Shown: one piece after another, positions 3,174-60,925 of the stretch
Layout: every line of letters starts with the position of its first letter
Numbering within the stretch: position 1 is the first letter of the stretch
Assembly: GCA_963807605.1 (NCBI GenBank)
Contig: CAWECG010000004.1
Span: 448,001-512,000, forward strand
Reading direction: 5' to 3'
Source: Candidatus Bathyarchaeota archaeon
GTDB lineage: Archaea > Thermoproteota > Bathyarchaeia > 40CM-2-53-6 > RBG-13-38-9
Length of the DNA: 64,000 bases
The notes under the pieces: generated by a model
Told to the model about the DNA's origin: nothing
Database searches by the model: none
The model's input: only the letters and a program-made list of their open reading frames with translations
Translations under genes and position numbers: made by a program

Positions 3174-3212
3174 ACTCGTGGGCATGGGAAGTATGTATTT
3201 GGTGGTAAACTG

Positions 3213-3867
3213 GTGGGCGAATCCCACTCCACGCACTATAGTACTGGCAAATTAGTATCCATCAACCGCGCAAGTGTGGCGATGTCATAGTATGGTTCAT
3301 TCCAATCCCTGCAATCGGACGCTTCTCGCTCTGATCCCTCGAGGCACTCGAAAATAATCAGGAGTATGTGTGCCCTAGCGGGTTAGAGCACGCGAATTTG
3401 AACTGATGGTTCTTCTTGTGCGTCTTTTGGTGAGGACACAAAAACACGAATCGTATAATAATGTGTGATATCTAAGGAATGCTGATCCTCTGTTAGAAAC
3501 TAGTGTAGTTTAGGGAATCGAACTTTATCCATACCCCGCCCGGAGCTTCATGTTACTAATTAGAGGCTTTTCCGCTCAATTATTATTCATAGTTGTTCCA
3601 GTGAGAAAGAATTTAAGCCACAAAACCGTACTATCCAGAAGAGATGCTTCTGGAATGGGTTTTTCCATGAAAAAAGAGCGGGATTTAGACCCTAATGGGT
3701 TTAAAACCCACCCGGTCCACTATTGCTTGGCTCATTTGACTCTCATGACTTCCGCCCACTATTCAAGCCCTAACCAAAGTGAATTGGCCTAACAGCTGAA
3801 CCGTTCAGATCAGTCAATCTTGATGGTATCTGACCCTTTATTTAGTCCAACACCCGCGGGTCCATTA
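3213..3867 (+). repeat. array 1 of degenerate tRNA 3'-end fragments (3213-3238 Leu-like, 3531-3550 Glu-like, 3696-3722 Ala-like, 3846-3867)
   Basis: e.g. GTGGG-CGAAT-CCCAC-TCCACGC-A-CTA and TGGGTTTAAAACCCAC-CCGGTCC-A-CTA. Confidence 0.6.
3721..3860 (+). repeat. direct repeat A, copy 1 (copy 2 at 17698-17837)
   Basis: 131/140 identity by manual alignment. Confidence 0.9.
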
Positions 3868-13194: not shown

Positions 13195-13875
13195 GTATCC
13201 ATAACCTCCATTGGATTACCCGTACTCAGTTAGATCTTAACACAATACTCTAGTTTTGCCTGGTAGCGCCTTAGCTCGGTGAACCCCACCGGCAGCGCTG
13301 CGCCAGTCCAGTTAATGAGCAGATTATTCATATAAGATAAATGGAAGAAAATCGATACGAATGTCTAAAATTGATAGAAAATCCTATCATTTGTTTAGAC
13401 TAGCATCAGATTTTCTGACCTCCTCGCCTATTGCTACTCGAACGCGTTATGTCAAACGCGCTCGAAACAAGAAATACCTTAAGCACCTAACTTGTTGAGC
13501 AAGACAGGAAGACTGGTTTCATCTGTCATACCCCGTACTAATCTAAATCCTTCAACAATCAAAGACTGGAGGAGATCGTCGGATGCACTAATACGTAAGC
13601 AAACACCCTAAGGAAGTAGCCATTGACGACTACCATTACAAAAATCTGCATAGAGACGCACACACAAATTCATCACACTGGGAAAAAGAACTTCAGGTCT
13701 GAGATGCAGTTAGCGCAGGCTTCATAGATCCTTTTCGACATTCAGACGGTTATGGGTGTGAGATGTTGACGAATCCTATTGGTAGTAGAACCAACCGTTT
13801 TCCTGGCATGGCTTGGATTGTTGTAGAATAAGGCACTTCTGAACGATAAAGGGCTCTAATTCACACTTAGATGAG

Positions 13876-13896
13876 CAAGTCCCGGCGGCCGCACCA
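13876..13896 (+). repeat. tRNA-Gly 3'-end fragment (att-like scar)
   Basis: CAAGT-CCCGG-CGGCCGC-A-CCA; no 5' tRNA half; weaker copy at 13281-13299. Confidence 0.75.
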
Positions 13897-14041
13897 CTCT
13901 AGCAATGAATAGATACAACTTGCCCCCATACTTGCTATTGCTTGCAGGTTTTCATATCGTTCAGAATGGAGAGTTGGACTATGGGTGGCTCTGTAGGCAA
14001 ATTAGCGCGCTTGTCCTGTCAGTTTTTTTGTCAGTCCCACT

Positions 14042-14650
14042 TCAATTTTTTGTGATGTCAAGAAAATATTCATAGATTCTCAAATCTTCAGTGAGCTCAG
14101 GGTGGAAACAGGTTCCTATCATGTTGCCCTGTTGGACAGCAACCGTTCTGCCCTCTAGTTTGCTGAGTACCTTTACGCCTGAGCCAATTTCGACGACTGT
14201 TGGAGCTCTTATGAAGACTCCTCTAAATCTCTCTCCCAAGATGGGAATGTCTAGGTCTGCCTCGAATGATTCACGTTGCCTTCCGAAGGCATTTCTCTCA
14301 ACCGTTACATCCATCAACCCTAAAGTCGTTTGAGCAACCTCCCCCACATTCCGATCGTGGACTTTCTTAGCCAGCATTATTAGCCCTGCGCATGTGCCCA
14401 TTATGGGCATGTCTTCATACGCGCGTTTCTGGAGGGTTTTGGTCACATCGTTAAGGTTGGCGAGTATGCCTATGACTGTGCTCTCTCCGCCTGGAATTAT
14501 TAGTGCGTCTGCTCTTTGAATATCGGTGGATCCTTTGACTGTTTCAACTATACCTTTGAATCCTTTTCGATCCATCGCGTGCCTAGCCGCTTTTACGTGT
14601 TCTTCGATGTCGCCTTGAAATCCTAAGATGCCTACAGTTATATCGCTCAA
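14042..14650 (-). CDS. pdxT: PLP synthase glutaminase subunit
   Basis: [35 protein letters not shown]. Confidence 0.97.
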
Positions 14651-15612
14651 CCACTGCCACGCTCCTGCATTCTCAACTCCAGAGTCTGGAGGTCCATACC
14701 GATCATGGACTTCTTCTCGTCGACCATGCTCTGGGCCTCAGCAACTTTGGATGGATCGTCATGGAATGTTACGGCCAAGACTATTGAGCGTGCACGCTCA
14801 GCAGGATCCTCCGATTTGAATATTCCTGAGCCAACGAAGACCCCGTCACATCCCAGATTCATCATTAAAGCAGCGTCTGCAGGTGTAGCAATCCCTCCGG
14901 CTGCGAAATTAACCACAGGTAACCTTCCAAGCCTTCCAGTCTCGTTCACTAGCTCGTAGGAAGCCCTCAACTCCCTCGCGATCTTAATCAGTTCCTGCGT
15001 GTCTTGTACCTCGTAGATAGATTTGATCCGTCTGATCTCGTTGTTAACAATCCTAGTATGTTTGACAGCTTCTGCAACATTTCCAGTGCCAGGTTCACCT
15101 TTTATCCTGATCATGGCTGCACCTTCTTCTATCCGACGAAATGCTTCTCCAAGATCTCTGGCACCGCACACAAACGGCGTTGTGAAATCCCATTTCCATA
15201 TGTGCCTCTCCTCATCTGCTGGGGTTAAAACCTCGGATTCGTCTATCATATCCACGCCAGCAGTCTCTAAGATCTTTGCTTCCCAAGTGTGGCCTATGCG
15301 GCATTTCGCCATAACCGGGATCGTAACGTTATCCAATATCTCCTTGATCGCGTTGAGGCTGGCGGTTCTGGCTACACCTCCAGATTTCCTTACATCGTAG
15401 GGTAGCTTATCCAGAACCATGACGGCTACCGCCCCAGCCTTCTCAGCAATCCTAGCCTGTTCCACATTTGTGACATCCATTATCACACCGTGCTTAAGCA
15501 TATGGGCGAAGCCACGTTTCAGAAGGGTGCTCCCTTGAACGGTATCAGCCCCCTCGATCCTTGCGTTGTGTACTCCTTTAGGCTGATGTATAGTTCCAGC
15601 TATTGAAATCAT
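14647..15612 (-). CDS. pdxS: PLP synthase lyase subunit
   Basis: [47 protein letters not shown]. Confidence 0.98.
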
Positions 15613-15636
15613 GGTATATAAGAGGGGGAAGAGATT

Positions 15637-15674
15637 ATATAAGTTTGAACCTATATATCAGTTCGGACTTATAT
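15637..15674. promoter_or_regulatory. candidate operator over the divergent pdxS / thrC-HTH promoters
   Basis: inverted repeat ATATAAGTTTGAAC-N10-GTTCGGACTTATAT (12/14), containing TATA-like boxes. Confidence 0.6.
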
Positions 15675-17139
15675 GGTTCTGCTATGTTCAGATTGTGGCG
15701 TCAATTACGCGGACTCTGAGGCGCTCAGGGTCTGCCGAAGATGCGGGCAGCCTCTATCGGTAACCTATGACTACGACAAGATCAGGGAGACACTTAGCAT
15801 CAAAGAGATCTCCAAGAGACCTTTTCGGCTATGGAGGTATCTCGAACTGCTGCCCATCACAGAGGAGGCTCATGTGATCTCACTGGGCGAGGGCGGAACC
15901 TACCTGCATAGATGCGATAGGCTCGCCAAATCATTGAGGTTAAAGAAGCTATACTTGAAAAATGAGACCACCAACCCTACTGGCTCATTTATGGATCGGG
16001 GCGTAACGGTCACTGTCACCAAGGTTAAACAAACAGGAATCAGAACCGTCTGCTGTGCCCCAACAGGGAATCTTGGCTCCTCCCTAGCAGCCTACGCAGC
16101 CAAAGCAGATCTAGAATGTAGAGTCTTCATCTCACATGAGGTGGACCTTGGTAAGCTCTACCAGATGATAGCCTTCGGTGCCGATGTCCAGACCGCCAGA
16201 GACATAGACGATGCATATCAAAAGGCCACTAGGATCGCTGATAAGAGCTACTTGGTAACCCCAGAAGATCCATACCTCCTCGAGGGAGAGAAGACTATAG
16301 GATATGAAATATGTGAACAACTCGATTGGCACACACCAGACTTGATAGTAGTTCCAATGGGAAGCGGCGGAAACCTCTCAATGATCTGGAAGGGAATTCA
16401 GGAATTCCTCCAAATCGGCTTAATCCGGAATAGTCATGCAGCCATGGTCGGCATTCAGAGCTCAAGCCACTCACCGATAGTAGACGCCTTCAAGGGCGCT
16501 CGTAAACTAGAAAAATCCAAGGGAGAAGGAAGATCTTTAGCTGTTGACATAGCTGTCAAGAATCCCGCTCTTGGAGACGCAGCCTTGAAGGTGATAGAGG
16601 CCTCAAAAGGCATAGCAACAAGCGTCTCCGACAACGAGATTCTAGAAGCAACACGATTACTTGCAAAGACAGAAGGGATCTTCGCCGAACCTGCTGCAGG
16701 CTCCACAATTGCCGGGCTTACGAAACTGGTAGAGTCTGGAGAGGTGGCCAGAGACCAAGAGGTCGTCTGCATAATAACAGGCTCAGGGCTCAAAGACCCT
16801 TACACCGCCCGTAAGTTTGCAGATGAAATGAAGCGTACTCGCAAACTCGTAAACAGTATCGACGAAGGTAGGGATGTCAGGCTCGGCGGTACAAAAATGA
16901 ACATCCTCAAGATCCTTCAGAATAGAGAACTTTATGGTTATGGCATATGGAAGGAGCTGTTAACTTATCATTCGAAAAAAGTCACCATGCCAACAGTGTA
17001 TCAACATCTACAAGAGATGGAGATGCGGGGATTGCTCAAACGTACAAGAAGAGAGGAATCAGTGGGAAGACCAGACCGCTGGTATTACATCCTAACAGAG
17101 AGGGGCAGGGAGGCTCTAAAAGCCTTCAGCAGACTATAG
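15673..17139 (+). CDS. thrC: threonine synthase-like (fold type II PLP) domain with the catalytic Lys replaced by Met, fused to a C-terminal PadR-like winged HTH
   Basis: Zn ribbon, SLGEGGT, NPTGSFMDRG (normally FKDRG), GEKTIGYE, ITGSGLKD; YGYGIWKEL..TVYQHL..YYILTERG. Confidence 0.85.
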   Translation: MVLLCSDCGVNYADSEALRVCRRCGQPLSVTYDYDKIRETLSIKEISKRPFRLWRYLELLPITEEAHVISLGEGGTYLHRCDRLAKSLRLKKLYLKNETTNPTGSFMDRGVTVTVTKVKQTGIRTVCCAPTGNLGSSLAAYAAKADLECRVFISHEVDLGKLYQMIAFGADVQTARDIDDAYQKATRIADKSYLVTPEDPYLLEGEKTIGYEICEQLDWHTPDLIVVPMGSGGNLSMIWKGIQEFLQIGLIRNSHAAMVGIQSSSHSPIVDAFKGARKLEKSKGEGRSLAVDIAVKNPALGDAALKVIEASKGIATSVSDNEILEATRLLAKTEGIFAEPAAGSTIAGLTKLVESGEVARDQEVVCIITGSGLKDPYTARKFADEMKRTRKLVNSIDEGRDVRLGGTKMNILKILQNRELYGYGIWKELLTYHSKKVTMPTVYQHLQEMEMRGLLKRTRREESVGRPDRWYYILTERGREALKAFSRL

Positions 17140-17343
17140 CACCTGATCCAATAGAGAATATCGAGGGTCAGTATCACGTCGGGCCGCCCAAGGTCAGACA
17201 GCTCAGACTCAAATGTCGAATGTTATGTTATGAACCTCAATTTCAACCCAATTTCCTCAACAAAAATGCTCTGGGCCCGGTTCGAACATCAGAGGTATGA
17301 ACCCGCGTGAATTTTGAGCCCAAATCTAGCACCGTTAACGCAT

Positions 17344-17442
17344 CGAATCCCGTCGGGCTCGCCAACAATAATCGATAAAAATTGTGGCATAATAACGGCG
17401 ATTGTGGTCTACAGGCAATTCAGGTATTCGCACCTAATAAGG
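17344..17442 (+). repeat. direct repeat B, copy 1 (copy 2 at 24661-24759)
   Basis: 88/99 identity by manual alignment; weaker similarity extends ~60 bp upstream. Confidence 0.9.
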
Positions 17443-17697
17443 GGTGCATACCGGCGGCTGCACCATTCTAGCGGTTCACAGTATCATCTGTAGACAAGAT
17501 TCCTGAACCTAAACAATTCGCCTTCGACACGGCTGTGAAAGTGTGAATCCCGCCCGGTCCACCATTCTGCACGTTCCGAATGAAAACGGTCTTTTTACGC
17601 ACTATCTTGGAGCTGTGGAAGAGCCACTTGCGAGAGGTAGATAGTTCTTATTCATATCTAGCTAATCAAATCCCGGCGGCCGCACCAATGATTTTTG

Positions 17698-17837
17698 TAT
17701 TGCTTGGTTCATTTGACTGTCATGACTTCCGCCCGCTATTCGAGCCCTAACCAAAGTGAATTGGCCTAAATGCTGAACCGTTCAGATCGGTCAATTTTGA
17801 TGGTATCTGACTCTTTATTTAGTCCAACACCCGCGGG
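17698..17837 (+). repeat. direct repeat A, copy 2
   Basis: matches 3721-3860. Confidence 0.9.
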
Positions 17838-17854
17838 CCGGCAATTCTCAGTGC

Positions 17855-18700
17855 CTACGTGCTACCGTCTTCTGTTTCAGATCTTTTCGTATGCTGAAGG
17901 GTGGCCATCTTGAGGCGGGACGTCATTTTTCTCAGTTTCTCCGTTGTCCTAATGGGTGATCCATGATTCTGCTCAATCACTTTGACAAACACGCTTCCAA
18001 CGATAGCCCCATCAGCTCCAGCTGCCACAATCTCTCTGATCTGTTCAGGGGTTGATATTCCAAAGCCGGTTGCAAGTGGAATCTCGTCCCTTATGTAGGA
18101 ACGAAACTCCTTAACTAACCTCACAGTCGAATCTGGGAGCCTTCTCCTGGCTCCAGTTACACCAAAGAGTGAGACTAAGTATAGAAAACCTGATGTGTAT
18201 TTCAGGATTTCCTGCAGTCTTTCCGCTGTGGTGGAGGGTGCTGCGAGAAATATTGTGTCGATCTTGGCTTCATCAGCGATCCTCTTGTAAGTGTCTGCCT
18301 CTTCAAAGGGCAGATCAGGGATTACTATCCCGTCAACCCCATTCATCTTTGCTAGTTCCAAGAAATTCTTCAGTCCGCTTTTGTAGATTATGTTATAGTA
18401 GGTCAGAAGTACGACGGGGATCCTGTGTTTTTCCTTGATCTTCTTTACGATCTTCATGACCAGTGGGGGCTTGGTTCCGGCTTTCAATGCTCTGACTGTT
18501 GCAGCTTGAATCGTCGGCCCATCCGCAATTGGATCAGAGAATGGGATGCCAAGTTCAATTACGTCTGCACCTCCTTCAACTAGAGCATCCACAATTCTAG
18601 GAGTGAATTTTGGAGATGGATCGCCCGCGGTCACGTACGTGATCAGCGCGGCCTCATTCCTCTCGCTCAGATCTCTGAAGGTTTCTGCAATAATGGTCAA
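17855..18700 (-). CDS. trpA: tryptophan synthase alpha
   Basis: [36 protein letters not shown]. Confidence 0.97.
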
Positions 18701-19896
18701 AGTCTTCGCCCCATTCTTCCAGCCACAACCTCCACATCCTTGTCACCTCTTCCTGAGATTGTGACCACGACACCTTCTTCGCTGTTCATCTTGGGTACTA
18801 TCTTCTTCATGTGTGCTAGCGCATGGCATGTCTCCAAAGCTGGAATAATCCCCTCTGTCCTGGAAAGCTCACAGAAGGCTTCCAGGGCCTCTTTGTCTGT
18901 GGCTGTGGCATACTCGACACGCCCTATACTGTGAAGATAGGAGTGTTCTGGGCCGACTGCTGGGTAGTCGAGGCCTGCAGAGACACTGTGGGTTGGCTGT
19001 ACCTGGCCATAGGCGTCTTGGAGAAGATAGGTTAGCATGCCATGGAATACCCCCTCTGACCCTGCACAGATTGAGGCTGCATGCTTTCCAGTCTTAATTC
19101 CTCTTCCTCCGGCCTCGACGCCATACATCTTTACGTTGTCATCATTAAGGAAGTGGTGGAATGTTCCTATGGCGTTGCTGCCGCCTCCAACGCATGCGAA
19201 GAGTGCGCTAGGTAACTTCTTCTCCTTCAGCAGGATCTGTTCCTTGATCTCCTTTCCAATGATACTCTGGAGGTCTCTTACGATCATTGGGTAGGGGTGA
19301 GGTCCTACCGCTGATCCAATCAAGTAGTATGTTGTCTGGGGGTTGGTCGTCCAGTCTCGGAGGGCCTCGTTTATCGCATCCTTCAGTGTCCTTGAACCCG
19401 AATCCACAGGGTGGACCTTCGCCCCGAGTAGCTCCATGCGGAAGACATTGAGCCTCTGCCTCTTCATATCCTCGGTTCCCATGTAGATCTCCGCATCCAG
19501 ACCTAGGGTAGCGCATGCTATCGCCGTGGCCACTCCATGCTGGCCTGCGCCGGTCTCCGCGATAACCCTCTTCTTGTTCATCCTCTTGGCCAGGAGAGCT
19601 TGACCTAGTGTGTTGTTGATCTTGTGGGCTCCTCCGTGAGCCAGATCTTCCCGTTTCAGATAGATCCTTGGGCCCCCGTACCTGCTGGATAGATTCTTGG
19701 CATAGTAGAGGGGTGTCGGTCTGCCAGCGAACTCTCTTAGATAATGGTCGAGCTGGTTCTTGAAATCAAGGTCCTCCTTGAAGCTAAGGTATGCATCTTC
19801 CAGCTCGCTGAGCACAGACATCAGAGTCTCAGGTACAAAGCGTCCTCCATACTTACCGAATTTGCCCTTGAACAAATTGGCCTGTTGCAGGTTCAA
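18697..19896 (-). CDS. trpB: tryptophan synthase beta (TrpB1)
   Basis: [39 protein letters not shown]. Confidence 0.98.
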
Positions 19897-20537
19897 TATG
19901 CAGCCTCCCTAGCTTTCCTGATGAACTCGGTCATCTTCTCAGGATCCTTAACCCTAGGACGCACCTCGACCCCCGTTGAGACATCGACCCCGTATGGCCT
20001 AACCGTACTTATCGCGTGGCCGACATTCTCTGGAGTGAGCCCTCCGGCAAGAATCATGGGTGCCGGGTATATTGCGTCCCTGATTTTTCTGCTTAAACTC
20101 CAGTCGTGTACAAGGCCTGTCCCTCCACGACCAGTCTGATCATGGGTGTCTACCAATACGGCTTGAGAGAATCTCGAGTATGACAGAGCTTGTTCGATCG
20201 CATCAAGCGCTCCAACATCAACAGCTACTATTACCTTGACTCTTGATGCCAAACCATTCCGGCGATACGATTCAGAAGCCACTCCATGAAGTTGTAGGAA
20301 TTTTGGAGCCAGCTCTTGGCAGATCTCCGCGGTTCTTTTTATTCCGTTGAAGACCGTCACTACCACGCTGTCCACGTTGCTTGGCAATCGGTCTATCAGG
20401 TTCTTTGCTTCTCTGAAAGAGAGATTTCTCGGTGATGCGGCTATGTCGACAATGAATCCTATGGAATCAACACCGGCCTGGACAGCTATATCCAAATCTT
20501 CCTGTTGAGTTACTCCGCAGATCTTTACTTTCACCAT
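19893..20537 (-). CDS. trpF: phosphoribosylanthranilate isomerase
   Basis: [32 protein letters not shown]. Confidence 0.96.
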
Positions 20538-20543
20538 CTGGAT

Positions 20544-21317
20544 CTATGCCTCCGCCAGCTCCCGGACTTTCTCTTCAGGGTTGAGAGCTGACATGATGGA
20601 TGATCCAACTAGGAAAGCACTCGCTCCACACTCTCTGAGGAAACGAACATGATCTCCGGTGTCGATTCCACTCTCACTCACGACAACATGGTTGCTTGGG
20701 TGGCGTGAACTCAATATCTTCCTTGTGACATCCAGATCTGTCTGCAGGGTCGAGAGATCTCGATTGTTTATTCCAATGAGGTCAGCCTCGGTGCTGAGAG
20801 CTCTTTCGAACTCTTCTGTGGTATGGGCCTCAAGCAGAATCTCCATACCTCTGTCATGCGCTAGATCTATCGTTCCTTCAAGATCGTTATCGCATAGGTT
20901 TCTCTCGAAGAGAGATTCGATCAGCAGTATCGCTTCAGCTCCGATCCTGGATGCGGCTTCAACCTGGATTGGATCGACGATTATGTCTTTCATGAGCCGC
21001 GGAAGGCCACATCTACGCGCGGTTATGAGGTATTCAGTTCTGCCTCTGAAGTGTTTCGGCTCGGTCAAGATCGATAAGCCGACTGCACCACCCAGTTTCA
21101 TCATCGACGCCAAAGCTTCAACGTTAATGTTCTGAGTGATGATCCCCTTCGAGGGTGAGGCGGGTTTGATCTCAGCTATTACTGGATTCCTCTTGCATTT
21201 GAGAATCGACTCTTTGAGCCCCATGCCGACTCTCTCATGAGATTGCTCAATATGATAGTAGCCTTCCGCAACGGTCTCTCTGGCATCCCTTGCCAGGATA
21301 TCTAGATAGTCACGCAG
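20544..21317 (-). CDS. trpC: indole-3-glycerol phosphate synthase (probable CTG start at 21317)
   Basis: IAEIKPASPS, SILTEP, MKD, GINNRDL, ESGI; frame open 31 codons upstream of the track ATG. Confidence 0.94.
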   Translation of the reverse strand: MRDYLDILARDARETVAEGYYHIEQSHERVGMGLKESILKCKRNPVIAEIKPASPSKGIITQNINVEALASMMKLGGAVGLSILTEPKHFRGRTEYLITARRCGLPRLMKDIIVDPIQVEAASRIGAEAILLIESLFERNLCDNDLEGTIDLAHDRGMEILLEAHTTEEFERALSTEADLIGINNRDLSTLQTDLDVTRKILSSRHPSNHVVVSESGIDTGDHVRFLRECGASAFLVGSSIMSALNPEEKVRELAEA

Positions 21318-22368
21318 TTATCTCCAGCTCCTCAAGTCTCGACAGGTTGCCGCCAGTGAACTCGATCAGCGAGACGAGTTTTCCGTAAGCTGCACCGCTC
21401 TCAATTGACTGGGCAGCGAGCTCGAGGCCTTCTTCGAAGCTTTCTGCTTTCCCTCCGACTACGATGCCTGCGGCTGCATTGAGTAGTACTATGGCTTGCT
21501 TGGGATCCCTGTGGGTACAGTGGCCTCTCATAATCCTAAGAGTCGCCACCGCGCTCTCATGGGTAGTTGAGCATCGCAGCGCCTCGGGTTTGGCTTTCTC
21601 TATACCAAAGTCCTCTGGCTCGATCGTGAAGCTGCATATCTCATCCTCTCTTAACCAAGAGATCTTGGTCCCTCCGACTGTGGAGACCTCGTCTAAGCCG
21701 TCGAGGCCGTGCACAACCATTGCTTGCTTGACACCAAGGTTTGAAAGTACGCTCGCTAGTGGTTCGGTCAAGGATTCTTGGTATACACCCAGAAGCTGGG
21801 CTGTTACGTTGGCCGGATTGGTCAGAGGACCCAGAATGTTGAACACTGTTCTGATCCCGATCTGACTCCTAGGGTTGACTGCATACTTCATTGCTGGGTG
21901 AAATGCTGGAGCGAACATGAATCCAATCCCAACCTCCTCTATTGCTTTCTCCACCGTCTCTGTTGGTATGTTGAGCCTGAGCCCCAGGGTCTCCAGAACG
22001 TCGGCGCTTCCACATCGGCTTGTCACAGACCGGTTCCCATGCTTTGCAACAGGTATGCCTGCGCCAGCGATGACAAAGGCGGACACTGTACTGATGTTGA
22101 ATGTCTTGACCTGATCGCCGCCTGTTCCACATGTGTCGACTAGGTTGCCTGCAACTTCAGGGTTAATCCGGTGGCAACAGCTTCTCATTACTCTTGCAAG
22201 TGATGTGATCTCGTCTACGGTCTCACCCTTCATCCTGAGGGCTGTCAGGAATGCGGCGATCTGTGCGTCTGTGGCTTTGCCCTCCATGATCTCCTGCATG
22301 ACCTCCCGTGCCTCTTTCTGTGTCAGGTCTCTTCGCTCAACGAGTTTTGCAATGGCTTCCTTAATCGT
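21310..22368 (-). CDS. trpD: anthranilate phosphoribosyltransferase (probable ACG start at 22368)
   Basis: DTCGTGGD, KHGNRS, GSADVLE, LGPLTNP, DGLDE; upstream (M)IKEAIAKLV. Confidence 0.95.
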   Translation of the reverse strand, partial: TIKEAIAKLVERRDLTQKEAREVMQEIMEGKATDAQIAAFLTALRMKGETVDEITSLARVMRSCCHRINPEVAGNLVDTCGTGGDQVKTFNISTVSAFVIAGAGIPVAKHGNRSVTSRCGSADVLETLGLRLNIPTETVEKAIEEVGIGFMFAPAFHPAMKYAVNPRSQIGIRTVFNILGPLTNPANVTAQLLGVYQESLTEPLASVLSNLGVKQAMVVHGLDGLDEVSTVGGTKISWLREDEICSFTIEPEDFGIEKAKPEALRCSTTHESAVATLRIMRGHCTHRDPKQAIVLLNAAAGIVVGGKAESFEEGLELAAQSIESGAAYGKLVSLIEFTGGNLSRLEELEITA

Positions 22369-22954
22369 CTCGGTAACCTCCGTCTAGGAAGTTTCTGAGA
22401 ATTCTTTTTCCTTGGTTGGTCAGGATAGACTCCGGATGGAACTGTAGGCCCTCGATTGGGTACTTGGTGTGGCGAATACCCATTATTTCGCAATCATCAA
22501 GAGAGTAGGCTGTTGCCTTCAAACAGTCTGGGAGCGAGAACAGATCAGCTACGAGGGAGTGGTATCTGGTGGCCTCAAGTGGATTTGGTGTGTCTCGGAA
22601 GATCCCTTTTCCGTCATGTTTTATCAGGCTGGTCTTGCCGTGCATCAGCCTCTGTGCTCTGATGATCTTTCCTCCAAAGGCATGTACGATCCCTTGATGC
22701 CCAAGGCAGATACCTAGTGTTGGTATGTGTCTGCTTAGATCTCTCAGGATGGCCAAGCAGTTGCCGAAGTATCGGGTTTCTGCTGGTGTTCCAGGTCCAG
22801 GGGAGAGAATCACTCTGTCGGGGTTGAGTCGTCTTGCCTCTCCTAGAGTCACCGTGTTGTTTCTGTGGACAACTGGTGTTCCGCCAAGTTCACCGACATA
22901 CTGTGCGATGTTGTATACGAATGAGTCATAGTTGTCTATTATCAGGACTTTCAA
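22361..22954 (-). CDS. trpG: anthranilate synthase component II
   Basis: IDNYDSF, SPGPG, GICLGHQ, RYHSL, QFHPES. Confidence 0.97.
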   Translation of the reverse strand: MKVLIIDNYDSFVYNIAQYVGELGGTPVVHRNNTVTLGEARRLNPDRVILSPGPGTPAETRYFGNCLAILRDLSRHIPTLGICLGHQGIVHAFGGKIIRAQRLMHGKTSLIKHDGKGIFRDTPNPLEATRYHSLVADLFSLPDCLKATAYSLDDCEIMGIRHTKYPIEGLQFHPESILTNQGKRILRNFLDGGYRDD

Positions 22955-24373
22955 ATCATTTCACCCGCCTTCTCCAAGGCCTTCATGAGAGCCGCGGCTT
23001 TTTGTTCTGTTTCAAACCATTCTTTCTCGGGGTCTGAGTCAGCCACTATCCCTGCGCCTACTTGGATTGAGGCTTTATTCTGATGGGTTGTCAGGGTACG
23101 GATGGTTATGGCAAAGTCTGCGTTTCCGTTGTTCGAGAAGTATCCGACGGCGCCCGCGTATGGTCCTCTTCTTGTGGGTTCAAGTTCCTCAATTATCTCC
23201 ATGGCTCTGACTTTCGGTGCTCCTGAGACAGTTCCGGCGGGGAGCATGGCTTTGAGTGCGTCAAAGCAATCCATGTCTGGACGTATCTTTCCGACGACTC
23301 TGGAGACGATGTGTTGGACATGACTGTATTGGTGTACAGTCATGAATTCAGGTGTGTGGACTGACCCAAACTCAGCTATTCTGCCGATGTCGTTCCGTGC
23401 CAGGTCTACAAGCATCACATGTTCAGCCCGCTCCTTCGGGTCTGAAAGCAACTCTTCAGCCAAGATCTGGTTCTTGGCTTGATCGTCGGTTCTTGGTCTG
23501 GTCCCGGCTATCGGATAGGTCTCCACGAGACCATTTTCAACTCTCACAAGCATCTCAGGACTTGAACCTACGACCTGTCTTTCTCCCATTTTGAGAAAAT
23601 ACATGTATGGGGATGGGTTGATGTTTCTCAACGTTCTGTAGAAGTTGATGAGGCTGCCCTCGAAGTTGAAGTTATAACGTTTTGAAAGGACTGCCTGGAA
23701 GATGTCTCCCGAAGAGATGTAGTTCTTGGCTTTCAAAACAGCCTCTTGAAAGTCGTCTTTTGAAGTATTCGATGTTGGGGTGGTGTATCTGAAGGGTTCT
23801 GGATCGGTGATGGCCTCTTGGATTCTGCTTTTGATCTCTGCCAATCGATCCCTGTTTTGAAAGTAGTAGTATGCTGTTCTGTTGATGTGATCGAAGACTA
23901 TCCCATCGTCAAAGAACGCCATCTCGAGATCTGGGAACTTGAGATCATCGGTGGCGGATTCCGGAATCTTTTCCCAGTACCTTACCGCATCATACGAGAT
24001 GTATCCTACGGCACCACCTGCGAGACGAAACTGGTCGAATGTTAAATGATTCCTCTGAATCTCACTTCGCATGATGTCAAGTGGATTGTGCGTTTCTTGG
24101 CATTCGTCTCCTGATGTCATGCTAGTGGTTCTTGCCACATGTCCTTTGACAGAGATCACTAGGTGTGGGTCAAACCCTATGAACGAGAACTTCGCCAGTT
24201 TTTCCGGGCCTTCAACTGACTCTAGAAGATATGTGTACCCGCTGTCTCCCTCAAGTCTTGCAAAGATATCTGCTGGCGTGTCGGTGTAGGGGATCTCTTC
24301 AAGATTGACCTTAGGCGATTTTCTGGAAGTTGGCTCCTCTAGTCTTGAGGTTTGTCCAAAGGCGATACCCCAT
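22951..24373 (-). CDS. trpE: anthranilate synthase component I; 5' ATG (24373) is one base out of frame
   Basis: LLESVEG motif upstream of the track start; NPSPY, SSPE, PIAGT, EHVMLVDLARND, GTVSGAPK, GAGIVADS. Confidence 0.93.
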
Positions 24374-24660
24374 TTACGCTAGTCCCCTGCATATCTGATG
24401 CATTAGGGACACACGAGTTCTATTTAAGGTTAGTGAGTACACTATTGTACATCTATATGCCTCACAACTTGAGAAGACCGACCATTATGTGCTTGACAGG
24501 ACAGAACACGAACACTGAAGCCTGTCCTCACGGTCCAATCGCACGCTGCTGAGAAAATCCGGCATAGTCAGAAAGTTCCTTCGCGGAGCTTGAAAGTGTA
24601 AGTTCGAATTATAGGAGAAAAAAATCAATTTTGAGCTCGGTCATGGCAACTATAACGTTA

Positions 24661-24782
24661 CGAACCCCGTCGGGCCCGCCAACGGTAATCGATACAACTT
24701 GCGGCATAATAACGGTCATTGTGGTCTGTAGGCAATTCAGGTATTCGCACCTAATAAGGCTCGAGTACCCGCGGGCCCGCCA
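24661..24782 (+). repeat. array 3: two Lys/Arg-like tRNA 3'-end fragments enclosing direct repeat B copy 2
   Basis: CGAACCCCGTCGGGCCCGCCA (24661-24681) and TCGAGTACCCGCGGGCCCGCCA (24761-24782). Confidence 0.8.
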
Positions 24783-31985: not shown

Positions 31986-33322
31986 GTGACATCCTCCCAC
32001 GGCTAAAGCCGTGGGCTTCCTGTTTCAATGACCGAACTTGCCTCCTCTCTTTTGCGGTAGAGGTATAGGTTCAATCTTCGCAGGCGTAGATTCGGGTGTG
32101 TCCCACCCTAGTCGATTCAGAATATTTACTGCGGAATTCCAGTCTCTATCCTTCATGAGTTCACAGTTTGGACACAGGTGCATCCGCTCGGAAAGGTTCT
32201 TCGGTACTGGAAATCCACATCTTGAACATTCTGTAGTTGTGTCACGTGATTCAGCAAATCTCACGTTCTTACCAGCGTATTCTGCTTTGTAAGAGGTGAA
32301 GGTTTGTAGTTGATGCCATGAAGCGTCTGCTATTGATTTGGCAAGATGATGATTTCGTATCATGTTTCTTATTGATAGGCGTTCAAATGCTATTAGGTCG
32401 AATCTATTCACGAGCGTATGGCTTAGCTTATGGTTGAAGTCTGTTCTCTGCAAGCGCACTTTGCGATGGACTCTCGCCACCTTGATGCGTTGTTTATCTT
32501 GATTATTCGATTCTTTCTTCTTTCTTGATAGTCGGCGTTGCTCTCTCCTCAACCTTTTTTGCATCTTCCGTAGGTATTTTGGTGGCTCTATCTTCTCGCC
32601 ATTGTTCAGGGTTATGAGAGATTTCAGACCGACATCAACGCCGACTGGGTTCTTTGGATGTCTCGTCTTTACTACTGTGAGAGGTATCTCCACTGGGAAG
32701 CATGCATACCACCTGTCAACGTCTCTGCGGATGGTGCAAGTCTTCACTGTTCCTTCTATAGGTCTGTGTTGTACAATTCGTATCGCGCCTATTTTTGAGA
32801 GAAACAACTTTCCAGTCGTTAGCTTGCATCCGTTCCCATATTGTGGGTATGTGAAACTGTCGTACTGGTTGCGTCCCTTGAAGCGGGGGTATCCGACCTT
32901 GCCATTCCACTTGCCTTCTTTCTTCTTTCTTGCTCTATCAAAGAAAGCGTTGAAAGTCCTCTCTATGCGTAGAGCGACGTCTTGCAAGACTTGTGAGTGG
33001 ACATCTTGGAGATAGTGGCTGGTGTTTTTGGCGTTTACGAGTCCTCGTTTCTGCTCGTAGAAAGATGGTGATCTTCCGTCGTTTCCATATTTGTCTCTGC
33101 GTTCCGCAAGCATAAGGTTATAGAGGATTCGACAGGTGTTGAGTGTCTTTGCGAGTTTTTCCTCTTGGTCCCTGTTCGGATAGATGCGGTACTTGTAGGC
33201 TAGAAGCATCACAGCACCTCACAAACATATGTTGACCTAAAAATTTAAACATCTGGCGTCTCGCTCTGGAACGCAATTCATCCCACCGCTAAAGCATGTG
33301 GGGTTTCTTGCTCAAATCCTCT
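31986..33322 (-). mobile_element. TnpB-only IS200/IS605 element 1 (target probably TTAG)
   Basis: subterminal hairpins at both ends; right end ...GATGTCAC. Confidence 0.88.
32025..33212 (-). CDS. tnpB: RNA-guided endonuclease TnpB
   Basis: YKYRIYP, GVDVG, FERL, Zn finger, DRDWNSA. Confidence 0.95.
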   Translation of the reverse strand: MMLLAYKYRIYPNRDQEEKLAKTLNTCRILYNLMLAERRDKYGNDGRSPSFYEQKRGLVNAKNTSHYLQDVHSQVLQDVALRIERTFNAFFDRARKKKEGKWNGKVGYPRFKGRNQYDSFTYPQYGNGCKLTTGKLFLSKIGAIRIVQHRPIEGTVKTCTIRRDVDRWYACFPVEIPLTVVKTRHPKNPVGVDVGLKSLITLNNGEKIEPPKYLRKMQKRLRREQRRLSRKKKESNNQDKQRIKVARVHRKVRLQRTDFNHKLSHTLVNRFDLIAFERLSIRNMIRNHHLAKSIADASWHQLQTFTSYKAEYAGKNVRFAESRDTTTECSRCGFPVPKNLSERMHLCPNCELMKDRDWNSAVNILNRLGWDTPESTPAKIEPIPLPQKRGGKFGH

Positions 33323-52296: not shown

Positions 52297-53641
52297 GTGA
52301 ACTTACCCACCCCTGAAGGGTGTGGGCTTCTCCCCTTGCGGATAGAGAAGTTCCTGCTTCAGCGACGAAACATGCCCACTAATAATAGTGGGCACAGGCT
52401 TCATTTCCACAGGCGTGCATTCGGATGGTTCCCACCCTATTCTTTCCAGTCCTAAACGCCTTATATTGAGTGATGCATTGAAGTCTCTATCAATCTTTAG
52501 TCCACAATGGGGACACTTGTGTATCCTCACTGCAAGAGGTTTAGGAACCTTAGCGCCACATCCGCTGCAATCCTGGCTGGTGTTCTGGGGTGGTACTTGG
52601 ATTCGTAGTTTACAGGCGGTTTCAGCCTTGTACCCTACCATCATTCCAAATCTTCCCCATGAAGCATCAGCCATATTCTTGGCATTAGGGATCTCCTGCA
52701 TCAAATCCTGAATATTCAGATCTTCCATGCAGATTACATCGTGTTTGTCAACGTAGTATCTTGAGAGTTTGTGTAAGAAGTCATTTCTGCAATTTGTTAT
52801 GTCCTCATGGATTGATGCAACCTTGACCTTCTGCTTCATCCTGTTTCTTGATTCCTTCTTCTTTCTTGATAGTCGCCTCTGCTCTCTTTGGAGTCTCTTC
52901 AGTTTTTTGTTGATGTTATGTGGATGAGGGGTCACTCTTCCATTAGAATCGTAGGCATAGTTTACTATGCCACATCTATCCCAACAGTTTTGCTATTGTC
53001 CGCTGGCTCAGTATTTATCGGATGGTCGTATTCAATGGAGGTTATTGCATACCAATTGTTGTTTGCAGAATGTTTTATGATAACCTGTTTGATCTCACCA
53101 TCAATCTCTCTATGCAGTCTGACTGGAATTTCTCCTATCTTGCTGAGGTGGAGTAATCCCATCTGTCGTATCTGCTTGGCACCATGCTTGATTAAGAATC
53201 CAGATTGGTTGTAGATGAAGGCCTTGAACCATCCACGTCCCTTGAATCTTAGCCTCCCAACCTTCCTGCCTTTCTTCTTCATCTGTGAGAGTGCCCTGAG
53301 ATTAGAGTACAGCTGGTAGAGGACGTATTGCCGTGTCTTTGAGTGTAGCTTCTCAAGCTCAGGCTTGTATTTGCATAGGGCAGGGATCATCTCTTGTAGA
53401 AGTATCCTGTCTGGCGTCTTTACACTGCACCTAACTATTCCCAAGAAGTAGTTGTAGAGCCACCGGCAAAGCTCAAGGATTGCAGACATCTCCTCCTCTT
53501 GTTCCCTTGTTGGGTAAAGCCTATAGCGCACTGAAGACTGCATTGTACTCACTATATTTTTTGTAAACTCCGCTTATAATGCTGATACCAGTTCGCTTTC
53601 ATCCCACCCCTAAAGGGTGGGGGATTTCCCGCTCACCTTTT
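52297..53641 (-). mobile_element. TnpB-only IS element 4 (target TTAA, right end TTCAC)
   Basis: near-identical to elements 5 and 6. Confidence 0.9.
52303..53552 (-). pseudogene. tnpB: TnpB with a 1-bp deletion at ~52972 (RuvC-I)
   Basis: GCCACATC versus GCCAACATC in copies 5 and 6. Confidence 0.88.
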
Positions 53642-59593: not shown

Positions 59594-60925
59594 CCCTGAA
59601 GGGTGTGGGCTTCTCCCCTTGCGGATAGAGAAGTTCCTGCTTCAGCGACGAAGCATGCCCACTAATAATAGTGGGCACAGGCTTCATTTCCACAGGCGTG
59701 CATTCGGATGGTTCCCACCCTATTCTTTCCAGTCCTAAACGCCTTATATTGAGTGATGCATTGAAGTCTCTATCAATCTTTAGTCCACAATGGGGACACT
59801 TGTGTATCCTCACTGCAAGAGGTTTAGGAACCTTAGCGCCACATCCACTGCAATCCTGGCTGGTGTTCTGGGGTGGTACTTGGATTCGTAGTTTACAGGC
59901 GGTTTCAGCCTTGTACCCTACCATCATTCCAAATCTTCCCCATGAAGCATCAGCCATATTCTTGGCATTAGGGATCTCCTGCATCAAATCCTGAATATTC
60001 AGATCTTCCATGCAGATTACATCGTGTTTGTCAACGTGGTATCTTGAGAGTTTGTGCAGGAAGTCATTCCTGCAGTTTGTTATGTCCTCATGGATTGATG
60101 CAACCTTGACCTTCTGCTTCATCCTGTTTCTTGATCCCTTCTTCTTTCTTGATAGCTGCCTTTGCTCTCTTTGGAGTCTCTTCAGTTTTTTGTCGATGTT
60201 ATGCGGATGAGGGGTCACTCTTCCATTAGAATCGTAGGCATAGTTTACTATGCCAACATCTACCCCAACAGTTTTGCTTCTGTCCGCTGGCTCAGTATTT
60301 ATCGGATGGTCATATTCAATGGAGGTTATTGCATACCAATTGTTGTTTGCAGAATGTTTGATGATAACCTGTTTGATCTCACCATCAATCTCTCTATGCA
60401 GTCTGACTGGAATTTCTCCTATCTTGCTGAGGTGGAGTAATCCCATCTGTCGTATCTGCTTGGCACCATGCTTGATTGAGAATCCAGATTGGTTGTAGAT
60501 GAAGGCCTTGAACCATCCACGTCCCTTGAATCTTAGCCTCCCAACCTTCCTGCCTTTCTTCTTCATCTGTGAGAGTGCCCTGAGATTAGAGTACAGTTGG
60601 TAGAGGACGTATTGCCGTGTCTTTGAGTGTAGCTTCTCAAGCTCAGGCTTGTATCTGCATAGGGCAGGGATCATCTCTTGTAGAAGTATCCTGTCTGGCG
60701 TCTTTACACTACACCTAACTATTCCCAAGAAGTAGTTGTAGAGCCACCGGCAAAGCTCAAGGATTGCAGACATCTCCTCCTCTTGTTCCCTTGTTGGGTA
60801 AAGCCTATAGCGCACTGAAGACTGCATTGTACTCACTATATTTTTTGTAAACTCCGCTTATAATGCTGATACCAGTTCGCTTTCATCCCACCCCTAAAGG
60901 GTGGGGGATTTCCCGCTCACCTTTT
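59580..60925 (-). mobile_element. TnpB-only IS element 6 inserted at TTAA in codon 9 of the AMMECR1 gene
   Basis: removal restores TTG AGA AAA GCG CCA TCC AAT CTT AA|G GAC CAC in frame. Confidence 0.92.
59586..60836 (-). CDS. tnpB: TnpB
   Basis: GVDVG, MEDL, DRDFNAS. Confidence 0.95.
   Translation of the reverse strand: MSTMQSSVRYRLYPTREQEEEMSAILELCRWLYNYFLGIVRCSVKTPDRILLQEMIPALCRYKPELEKLHSKTRQYVLYQLYSNLRALSQMKKKGRKVGRLRFKGRGWFKAFIYNQSGFSIKHGAKQIRQMGLLHLSKIGEIPVRLHREIDGEIKQVIIKHSANNNWYAITSIEYDHPINTEPADRSKTVGVDVGIVNYAYDSNGRVTPHPHNIDKKLKRLQREQRQLSRKKKGSRNRMKQKVKVASIHEDITNCRNDFLHKLSRYHVDKHDVICMEDLNIQDLMQEIPNAKNMADASWGRFGMMVGYKAETACKLRIQVPPQNTSQDCSGCGAKVPKPLAVRIHKCPHCGLKIDRDFNASLNIRRLGLERIGWEPSECTPVEMKPVPTIISGHASSLKQELLYPQGEKPTPFRGG

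Follow-up and report, generated by a model that had tools for sequence, protein, structure and literature searches.

Stacked tRNA 3'-end junctions of mixed isotype between thrC and trpA in a probable Bathyarchaeia genomic island

The array between thrC and trpA

The stretch of DNA considered here (the window) comprises 64,000 nucleotides of a Candidatus Bathyarchaeota archaeon genome (G000; 94%-complete; contigs C1, C3 and C4) and corresponds to C4:448001-512000. Coordinates without a contig name are those of the window; other G numbers denote other genomes, L numbers their loci, and X1, X4, X5 and X6 metagenome runs. Between a thrC-PadR fusion gene (15673-17139, +) and trpA (17855-18700, -) lie six tRNA tails (tRNA positions 58-76), all on the + strand. 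They end at 17190, 17364, 17465, 17564, 17687 and 17844; the periods of 174, 101, 99, 123 and 157 bp are those that a preliminary description of this DNA had reported. Four of the tails (Lys-CTT, Gly, Ala and Gly) are clear, with 0-1 mismatch to the genome's own tRNA ends over positions 62-76, and the outer two are decayed. The 5' tRNA half is indeed missing: no tail has a 5' T-stem, and there is no tRNA gene anywhere in the window. ARAGORN and Rfam returned nothing relevant in the array region, and promoter and terminator scans stayed at chance level.

A 15-nt tail pattern, expected 0.27 times in the window, occurs there seven times, always on the + strand. None of 100 shuffles reached seven; motifs no commoner than in shuffled sequence would have counted against the earlier description. 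A weak HMM match adds a further, truncated site at 17229-17278, the seventh of the array.

The array contains nearly nothing but tails and the arms that precede them. Throughout the genome, orphan tails are preceded by conserved arms of 30-70 bp, which fall into six families labelled A to F. The array holds at least four arm families (A at site 2, B at sites 3 and 6, E at site 4 and F at site 5) and four tRNA types (Lys, Gly, Ala and Arg), with no isotype hybrids among its tails. The spacers had been called mutually unrelated. This holds within the array, where they are unlike each other, and fails elsewhere, as the arms recur genome-wide and in other Bathyarchaeia: 17310-17466 has a 78% copy at C4:472627, 17451-17563 a 96% copy in G008, and the arm ahead of the Lys tail recurs more than 15 times.

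Site 1 (17172-17190, +) is a decayed Lys-type tail to which no arm family is assigned; it is weak on its own because by-eye comparison with tRNA-Lys leaves 4 mismatches. The extra site (17229-17278, +; HMM E 0.77) is a decayed A-type arm whose tail ends after position 62 and is fused to the next arm, and its end resembles the Arg-type A arms of G040 and G010. Site 2 (17279-17364, +) joins an A-type arm (17279-17345) to a Lys-CTT tail (17346-17364) with one mismatch. This arm mirrors the one found between tRNA-Lys and an integrase gene (C3:420078-421352) at 21/32 positions, only at register 57<->72. Several decayed copies of a T-loop-like box, GGTTCGAACC, are spaced 13-17 bp apart in the A arm (17279-17351) and are probably protein-binding boxes. 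Site 3 (17365-17465, +) consists of a shortened left-end remnant, a B-type arm (17416-17446) and a Gly tail (17447-17465) with one mismatch in 62-76 and different bases at 58-61; its overlap, positions 62-67, falls at 17451-17456. The 101-bp unit of this site, following a Lys tail, is repeated at 24682-24782, and its arm mirrors the integrase-side arm at C1:9384 (22/32).

Site 4 (17466-17564, +) is a 99-bp unit with an E-type arm (~17497-17545) and an exact Ala tail (17546-17564). This Gly-to-Ala unit is found at 96% identity in G008 and, at 68% without gaps and with the same 99-bp period, in G089, a genome of another family; the E arm is present also in G097, G101 and G102. Site 5 (17622-17687, +) has an F-type arm and an exact Gly tail (17669-17687), and as a right border it pairs with a Gly/F site at 13878-13896. 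It is 73% identical to C4:461831-461896 and mirrors the right arm of the 13896 site at 16/32 positions. Site 6 (17698-17844, +) carries a B-type arm (17796-17825) and an Arg tail with a decayed right half; its overlap lies at 17830-17835, and it forms the left border of the trp module. The unit 17698-17837 has a 94% copy of 140 bp at 3721-3860 (C4:451721), and the arm mirrors that after tRNA-Arg C4:439696 (18/32). Within this unit, 17776-17800 shares a short motif, TGAACCGTT, with the inner part of a Cas1-flanking repeat (C3:796400-805490), which also has a loose likeness to the A arm; the motif is possibly a common host-factor site.

Arms, integrases and crossover geometry

The earlier suggestion to look for a co-occurring tyrosine recombinase is borne out by two integrase families, which are tied to the A and B arms. 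The reverse complement of the A arm sits between tRNA-Lys(TTT) and a 424-aa integrase (C3:420078-421352) with weak Phage_integrase and XerA matches. Relatives of this protein come after tRNA-Lys or tRNA-Arg with the A arm kept, and G088 holds a 15-kb A-family element. On the 5' side of the same tRNA-Lys(TTT), a second integrase (466 aa; C3:421537-422937) reads away from the gene, which therefore has an integrase on both sides.

The reverse complement of the B arm sits between tRNA genes and a family of 450-500-aa proteins, represented in G000 by C4:439744-441270, after tRNA-Arg(GCG). The family has no Pfam match, and its homologues are named site-specific integrase; a scan of the genome contigs with a single protein gave nothing, and an alignment-based scan did find it. 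Residues R152, K197, R274, H301 and Y309 are invariant, and a structural model (pLDDT 72, pTM 0.43) has XerA and other tyrosine recombinases as its best matches (XerA/Cre fold). Of 133 loci, 88 have the B-family integrase beginning a short way past a tRNA 3' end (mostly 55-100 bp); 16 different overlap hexamers occur among these 88, with the arm conserved. Ten further loci were scored as following orphan tails, about six of them clearly. Relatives occur in Nitrososphaeria, and viral contigs gave no match to the A-arm pattern or to the B-family integrase. A tyrosine recombinase thus stands beside a tRNA-side att arm for the A and B families; the link is weak for F and D, and no recombinase is tied to E. 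The F arm, a third type, mirrors the right arm of another orphan site.

Mirror symmetry of the A, B and F arms peaks only at register 57<->72 (16-25/32, against about 4-14 at other registers), which sets the axis at tRNA position 64.5 and leaves 14 bases (58-71) between the mirrored arms. Identity to the cognate tRNA has a left boundary specific to the family. B sites mostly differ at 61, where identity is 18%, and match from 62, with mostly 90-100% over 62-76; A sites vary at 58-60. Three complete elements of 4.5-8.7 kb (L117, L204 and L212) run from tRNA through arm, integrase, cargo and mirrored arm to tail, and their tails differ from their own tRNA at 58-61 and match it from 61/62. From the axis and the shared identity from 61/62 we infer a crossover overlap of about 6 bp (at most 8 bp) at positions 62-67, and not in the T-loop, where it had been placed before.

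Each array tail belongs to an att junction that is specific to one arm family and one isotype, the arm mirroring the tail it precedes; these comparisons establish what the sites are and tie them to two integrase families. Of the earlier proposal that the tails serve as generic recombination or processing sites, recombination stands, given the tie to tyrosine recombinases; generic use does not, as the junctions are specific to family and isotype, and no RNA-processing structure was found.

Orphan sites and stacks in the genome and its relatives

A genome-wide tail search that allowed up to 3 mismatches gave 99 matches, where a 5th-order Markov null gave 9. Some 40 of the 99 are real tRNA genes; once tRNA genes, including those with T-loop or other introns, had been taken out and HMM matches added, about 55 orphan sites were left. 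Of the 55, 22 have another site within 200 bp, against 0.64 under a naive uniform null that overstates the significance of clustering because sites concentrate in islands. Further stacks of G000 lie at C3:162k and C3:577k, and mixed stacks occur in five other genomes from three families (G008, G040, G088, G089 and G097), with the order Leu, Ala, Gly, Ala, Lys in G008. A strict two-tail pattern was found in 3 of 401 genomes of the class, where repeats are often unassembled, so the trait is patchy or poorly assembled. Order and period vary between stacks (about 66-174 bp). The Gly-to-Ala unit was met in three genomes, each time behind a different left arm. In G102 a full tRNA-Gly gene is followed, ~240 bp further on, by an E-arm Ala site.

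Some arrangements elsewhere in these genomes are less regular. At C3:59923 an A-type arm of the Lys-TTT kind is joined to a Gly right half and an F-type right arm; tRNA-Lys-TTT and tRNA-Gly have an identical 62-67 hexamer, and the site is likely a cross-isotype recombinant. Inverted att pairs, tail-to-tail or back-to-back (C3:347001(+)/347029(-), C3:167357(-)/167327(+) and L079:17448-17591), suggest inversions or opposed insertions. In G040 (L089:5071-9520) the end of a his operon directly abuts a stack of three A-type sites, as trp and thrC abut a stack in G000.

Architecture of the proposed island and possible exchange of modules

The array had been described as far from any tRNA gene. It is nevertheless anchored: 25 kb upstream of it, and 8.3 kb beyond the left edge of the window, stands a co-oriented tRNA-Arg (C4:439696) with an intact integrase (C4:439744-441270), and the array probably belongs to an island downstream of that gene. 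Arg/B sites at 3864, 17844 and 24782 mark off three parts of this island, namely a block with the integrase, the Lrp-urease-pdx-thrC block and the trp operon. The left border of the Lrp-urease-urea transporter block is an upstream stack (3198-3864, +) with Leu/C at 3238, a D-type remnant at 3495-3540, an Ala-like site at 3722 and Arg/B at 3864. A two-armed Gly/F junction (13850-13925, +; site 13896) borders the pdxT-pdxS-thrC module on the left. This integrase-less module (14042-17139; pdxT and pdxS on the - strand, thrC-PadR on the +) lies between the Gly/F sites 13896 and 17687. Its last gene (15673-17139) encodes a threonine-synthase-like PALP enzyme with a C-terminal PadR helix-turn-helix; relatives of similar length (45-49%) occur in G002, G013 and G023.

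The trpEGDCFBA operon (17855-24159, -) forms another integrase-less module. It is bracketed by two site pairs, Arg/B at 17844 and 24782 and Lys/A at 17364 and 24681, and its right border (24624-24782, +) consists of an A arm with a Lys tail (to 24681) and the 101-bp unit, with a B arm and Arg tail (to 24782). Integrase-less modules thus keep matching sites at both ends (Gly/F, Arg/B and Lys/A), and stacks sit at the right ends of blocks. Successive junctions with the same target gene end are limited to the outer Arg series; the neighbouring stack sites are Lys, Gly, Ala, Gly and Arg, and the mixture of isotypes does, as first argued, go beyond one conventional element. The 64-kb window contains no integrase homologue, the nearest integrase being 24 kb from the array. 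The surroundings of the G012 and G023 trp operons yielded no att sites, so an att-bounded trp operon is seen only in G000 and the metagenome contigs. In G013 (genus g3) trp lies between divergent tRNA-Gly and tRNA-Ala genes (L079:6281-14546), beside ABC genes that follow trpE in G000; a similar pair, 3 kb apart and without trp, is present in G000 at C3:27983-31087. The window also holds an IS605/TnpB-like ORF (32025-33212) and two identical palindromic sequences of 21-22 bp, 7.3 kb apart (52373-52394 and 59656-59677).

Metagenome contigs were compared at 85% likeness. A contig of the soil run X4 agrees with 17830-18276 apart from one difference, and ahead of this stretch it carries a different B arm, which stops at position 61; it thus joins the trpA region to that arm exactly at 61|62 of site 6 (one contig, depth 3.7). 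In the marsh run X6 a match begins at 17833 after 127 foreign bases (a single low-depth contig). Both contigs break inside the predicted overlap of site 6. The identity of G008 over 17451-17563 sets in with position 62 of site 3, and what precedes it in G008 is an A arm instead of the B arm of G000. The left arm has thus been exchanged at sites 3 and 6, which act as natural breakpoints. Another X6 'joint', 17334-17541, is no deletion: it consists of an A arm and an Ala tail, as does C3:162429.

Evidence on movement of the modules themselves comes from coverage and affinity. The trp operon is mostly covered at about 90-99% identity in X1 and X4, and pdx-thrC at about 94-97% in X5; the urease block has little cover in four runs and no match in five relatives, and carries no weight as evidence. 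TrpB is 51% identical to that of a genome of the same genus, against 82-84% in two other genera, one of another family, whereas for a transporter gene outside the island the nearest relative is in the same genus. This discordant affinity fits transfer. An exact look-up of TrpB returned nothing, and no excised circles or empty sites were seen.

Interpretation

We consider it quite probable (roughly 0.78) that the motifs are attR-type junctions of elements with tRNA-targeting tyrosine integrases, stacked in a tandem island by serial accretion and loss. The array is, in our judgement, a variant of the tRNA-island accretion described for CIMEs. An attR-type junction would comprise an element arm, an overlap of ~6 bp at 62-67 and the remaining tRNA 3' end. 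The tandem island would have grown downstream of tRNA-Arg from integrase-less modules (the urease block, pdx-thrC and trp) that move by integrases supplied in cis or in trans, and the stack would have formed by repeated accretion, with integrase and cargo lost between neighbouring ends. A site left just 3' of another tail would travel as the flank of the upstream tail; stacks would therefore pass on by descent, be broken up when new elements insert, and be rearranged where overlaps match. The three left arms of the Gly-to-Ala unit and the G102 site after tRNA-Gly are as such flank carriage predicts. Where pairs of matching sites overlap, more than one integrase family could excise one module. 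The first placing of different isotypes 75-170 bp apart has to be inferred, because classical accretion gives same-isotype junctions. A further point against accretion is that stacks show no consistent age gradient: an old-to-new order fits the array here, and not the stacks of G008 or C3:162k. A variant in which att-only circles of ~100 bp insert into non-cognate tails was rejected, as it predicts hybrid tails and those of the array are single-isotype.

The same att junctions may instead have been kept by selection, as landing pads or multi-helper sites. With such multi-key platforms ('key rings'), integrase-less operons (trp, pdx-thrC, urease and perhaps his) could be captured and cut out by whichever helper integrase is present and could dock again at different tRNA genes; the stacks would amount to an integron-like exchange platform made of tRNA ends without IntI. 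We regard this as possible, though unlikely. It would account for an array composed almost wholly of tightly packed arms and tails, for the excess of close neighbours over the naive null, for a Gly-to-Ala unit that holds its 99-bp length in another family, for the bracketing of trp by both Arg/B and Lys/A pairs, and for the his operon adjoining a stack in G040. It is harder to reconcile with the decay or truncation of sites 17190, 17278 and 17844, with the variable order and period and with the rarity of the strict pattern in the class, and neutral inheritance can explain the shared units. Packing and the conserved 99-bp length thus favour selection, and decay and variable order favour debris.

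Readings that do without serial integration by tRNA-targeting integrases fare much worse. A pile-up of casposons, with the 14 bases between mirrored arms as Cas1-made target duplications and the arms as terminal inverted repeats, draws on the size of that interval (58-71) and on the Cas1 genes of the genome. Yet positions 58-61 differ systematically from the tRNA, complete elements included, so that the duplication does not directly abut the arms; the arms adjoin tyrosine recombinases, not Cas1; the Cas1 loci are on C1 and C3, with none on C4; and the main one is flanked by a different repeat family that has no match to the array sites. For A and B sites the mismatch at 58-61 and the lack of Cas1 in the elements rule this reading out, and overall we hold it to be very improbable. 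The repeat family in question (C3:796400-805490) flanks Cas1 at C3:803636 in the manner of casposon-like ends and has dozens of copies genome-wide; separately, 1587-1635 of the window is a 49-bp match (86%) to DNA 3 kb from that gene.

Equally improbable is the integron-like or repeat-spacer system first proposed, or an array that yields tRNA-like small RNAs by cleavage at the CCA ends, in spite of the co-oriented sites, the near-regular period and the cassette-like blocks. No integron integrase was found (TIGR02249 at best 34 bits against a cut-off of 265) and no attI/Pc beside the integrase; the sites form no stable, attC-like hairpins (z -1.3 to +1.1; top strands, folded as RNA), and the units are gene-free or whole operons rather than single-gene cassettes. 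A CRISPR-like array would need a constant repeat with unique spacers, but the spacers are reused integrase arms, and no cas genes lie nearby; small RNAs are disfavoured by tails that lack the 5' T-stem and acceptor strand and match no Rfam family. Retroviral primer copying stops at m1A58, and a left boundary near positions 58-62 could recall a reverse transcriptase that copies tRNA primers and stops near modified A58, or else halves of split tRNAs. This last reading is the most doubtful of all. As to the reverse transcriptase that had been suggested for a check, no RVT_1 match was found in the 94%-complete genome; the boundary at 61/62 is family-specific and accounted for by integrase-linked complete elements; intact Lys, Gly, Ala and Arg genes are present, and the arm complements follow complete tRNA genes, not 5' halves.

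Relation to known systems

Elements of the ICE, IME and CIME type at tRNA 3' ends provide the closest precedent: integrase-less modules keep their att sites and stack in tandem, the described tandems share one target gene, and chimeric junctions between elements with different integrases are known (PMC5704250). The array resembles CIME accretion in its att-keeping integrase-less modules, its tandem stacking at a tRNA and its chimeric junctions (PMC5704250). It differs in that junctions of four arm families and four tRNA types follow one another at intervals of 99-174 bp without intervening genes, and in that modules are bracketed by overlapping site pairs. Tycheposon islands of Prochlorococcus, in the part of the source at hand, are likewise tRNA-anchored, with new elements pushing old ones inward, nutrient-acquisition cargo, and partial tRNAs and integrase fragments scattered through them (10.1101/2020.12.28.424599). 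Here, in contrast, the host is archaeal and the integrase family divergent, and the same part of that source does not describe close stacks in which isotypes are mixed and arms intact. Cryptic integrated elements of Thaumarchaeota, as far as the portions of the reports at hand extend, show piggybacking, and their att sites, which lie in tRNA 3' regions, are short, with a median of 17 bp (PMC6563490; review PMC8371274). They share tyrosine integrases and many tRNA targets with the array, whereas arm symmetry, a 62-67 crossover, stacks and att-bounded biosynthetic operons do not figure in those portions (PMC6563490). The likeness to integrons is loose, namely ordered, reshuffled gene blocks parted by tyrosine-recombinase sites; the array has no IntI, attI or attC, involves several integrases, and consists of multi-gene operons or gene-free units. 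In the literature covered, which is incomplete, such mixed stacks were not found described: single tRNA-end junctions are well known, and what appears new is a tight pile from several integrase families and tRNA types within 700 bases.

Bathyarchaeia are an abundant, mostly uncultured sediment lineage. The island offers a concrete way for entire operons of amino-acid, vitamin and nitrogen metabolism to pass between them, and it specifies att sites that can be tested (arms, overlap 62-67) for a tyrosine integrase family that is large and has no Pfam match. The B-family integrase has switched among many tRNA targets with its arm kept, which makes it useful for studying how targets are switched and perhaps as a tool for integration in archaea. 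If selected, the stacks would be a new means for helper-dependent elements to broaden their range; if not, they would be a legible record of former landing sites, and a caution for the annotation of tRNA fragments. Four apparent tRNA genes of G000 with a bulge-helix-bulge intron in the T-loop, at about 59/60 (C4:224105(-), C4:91990(+), C1:69922(-) and C4:321632(+)), are missed by ARAGORN and are easy to mistake for orphan tails.
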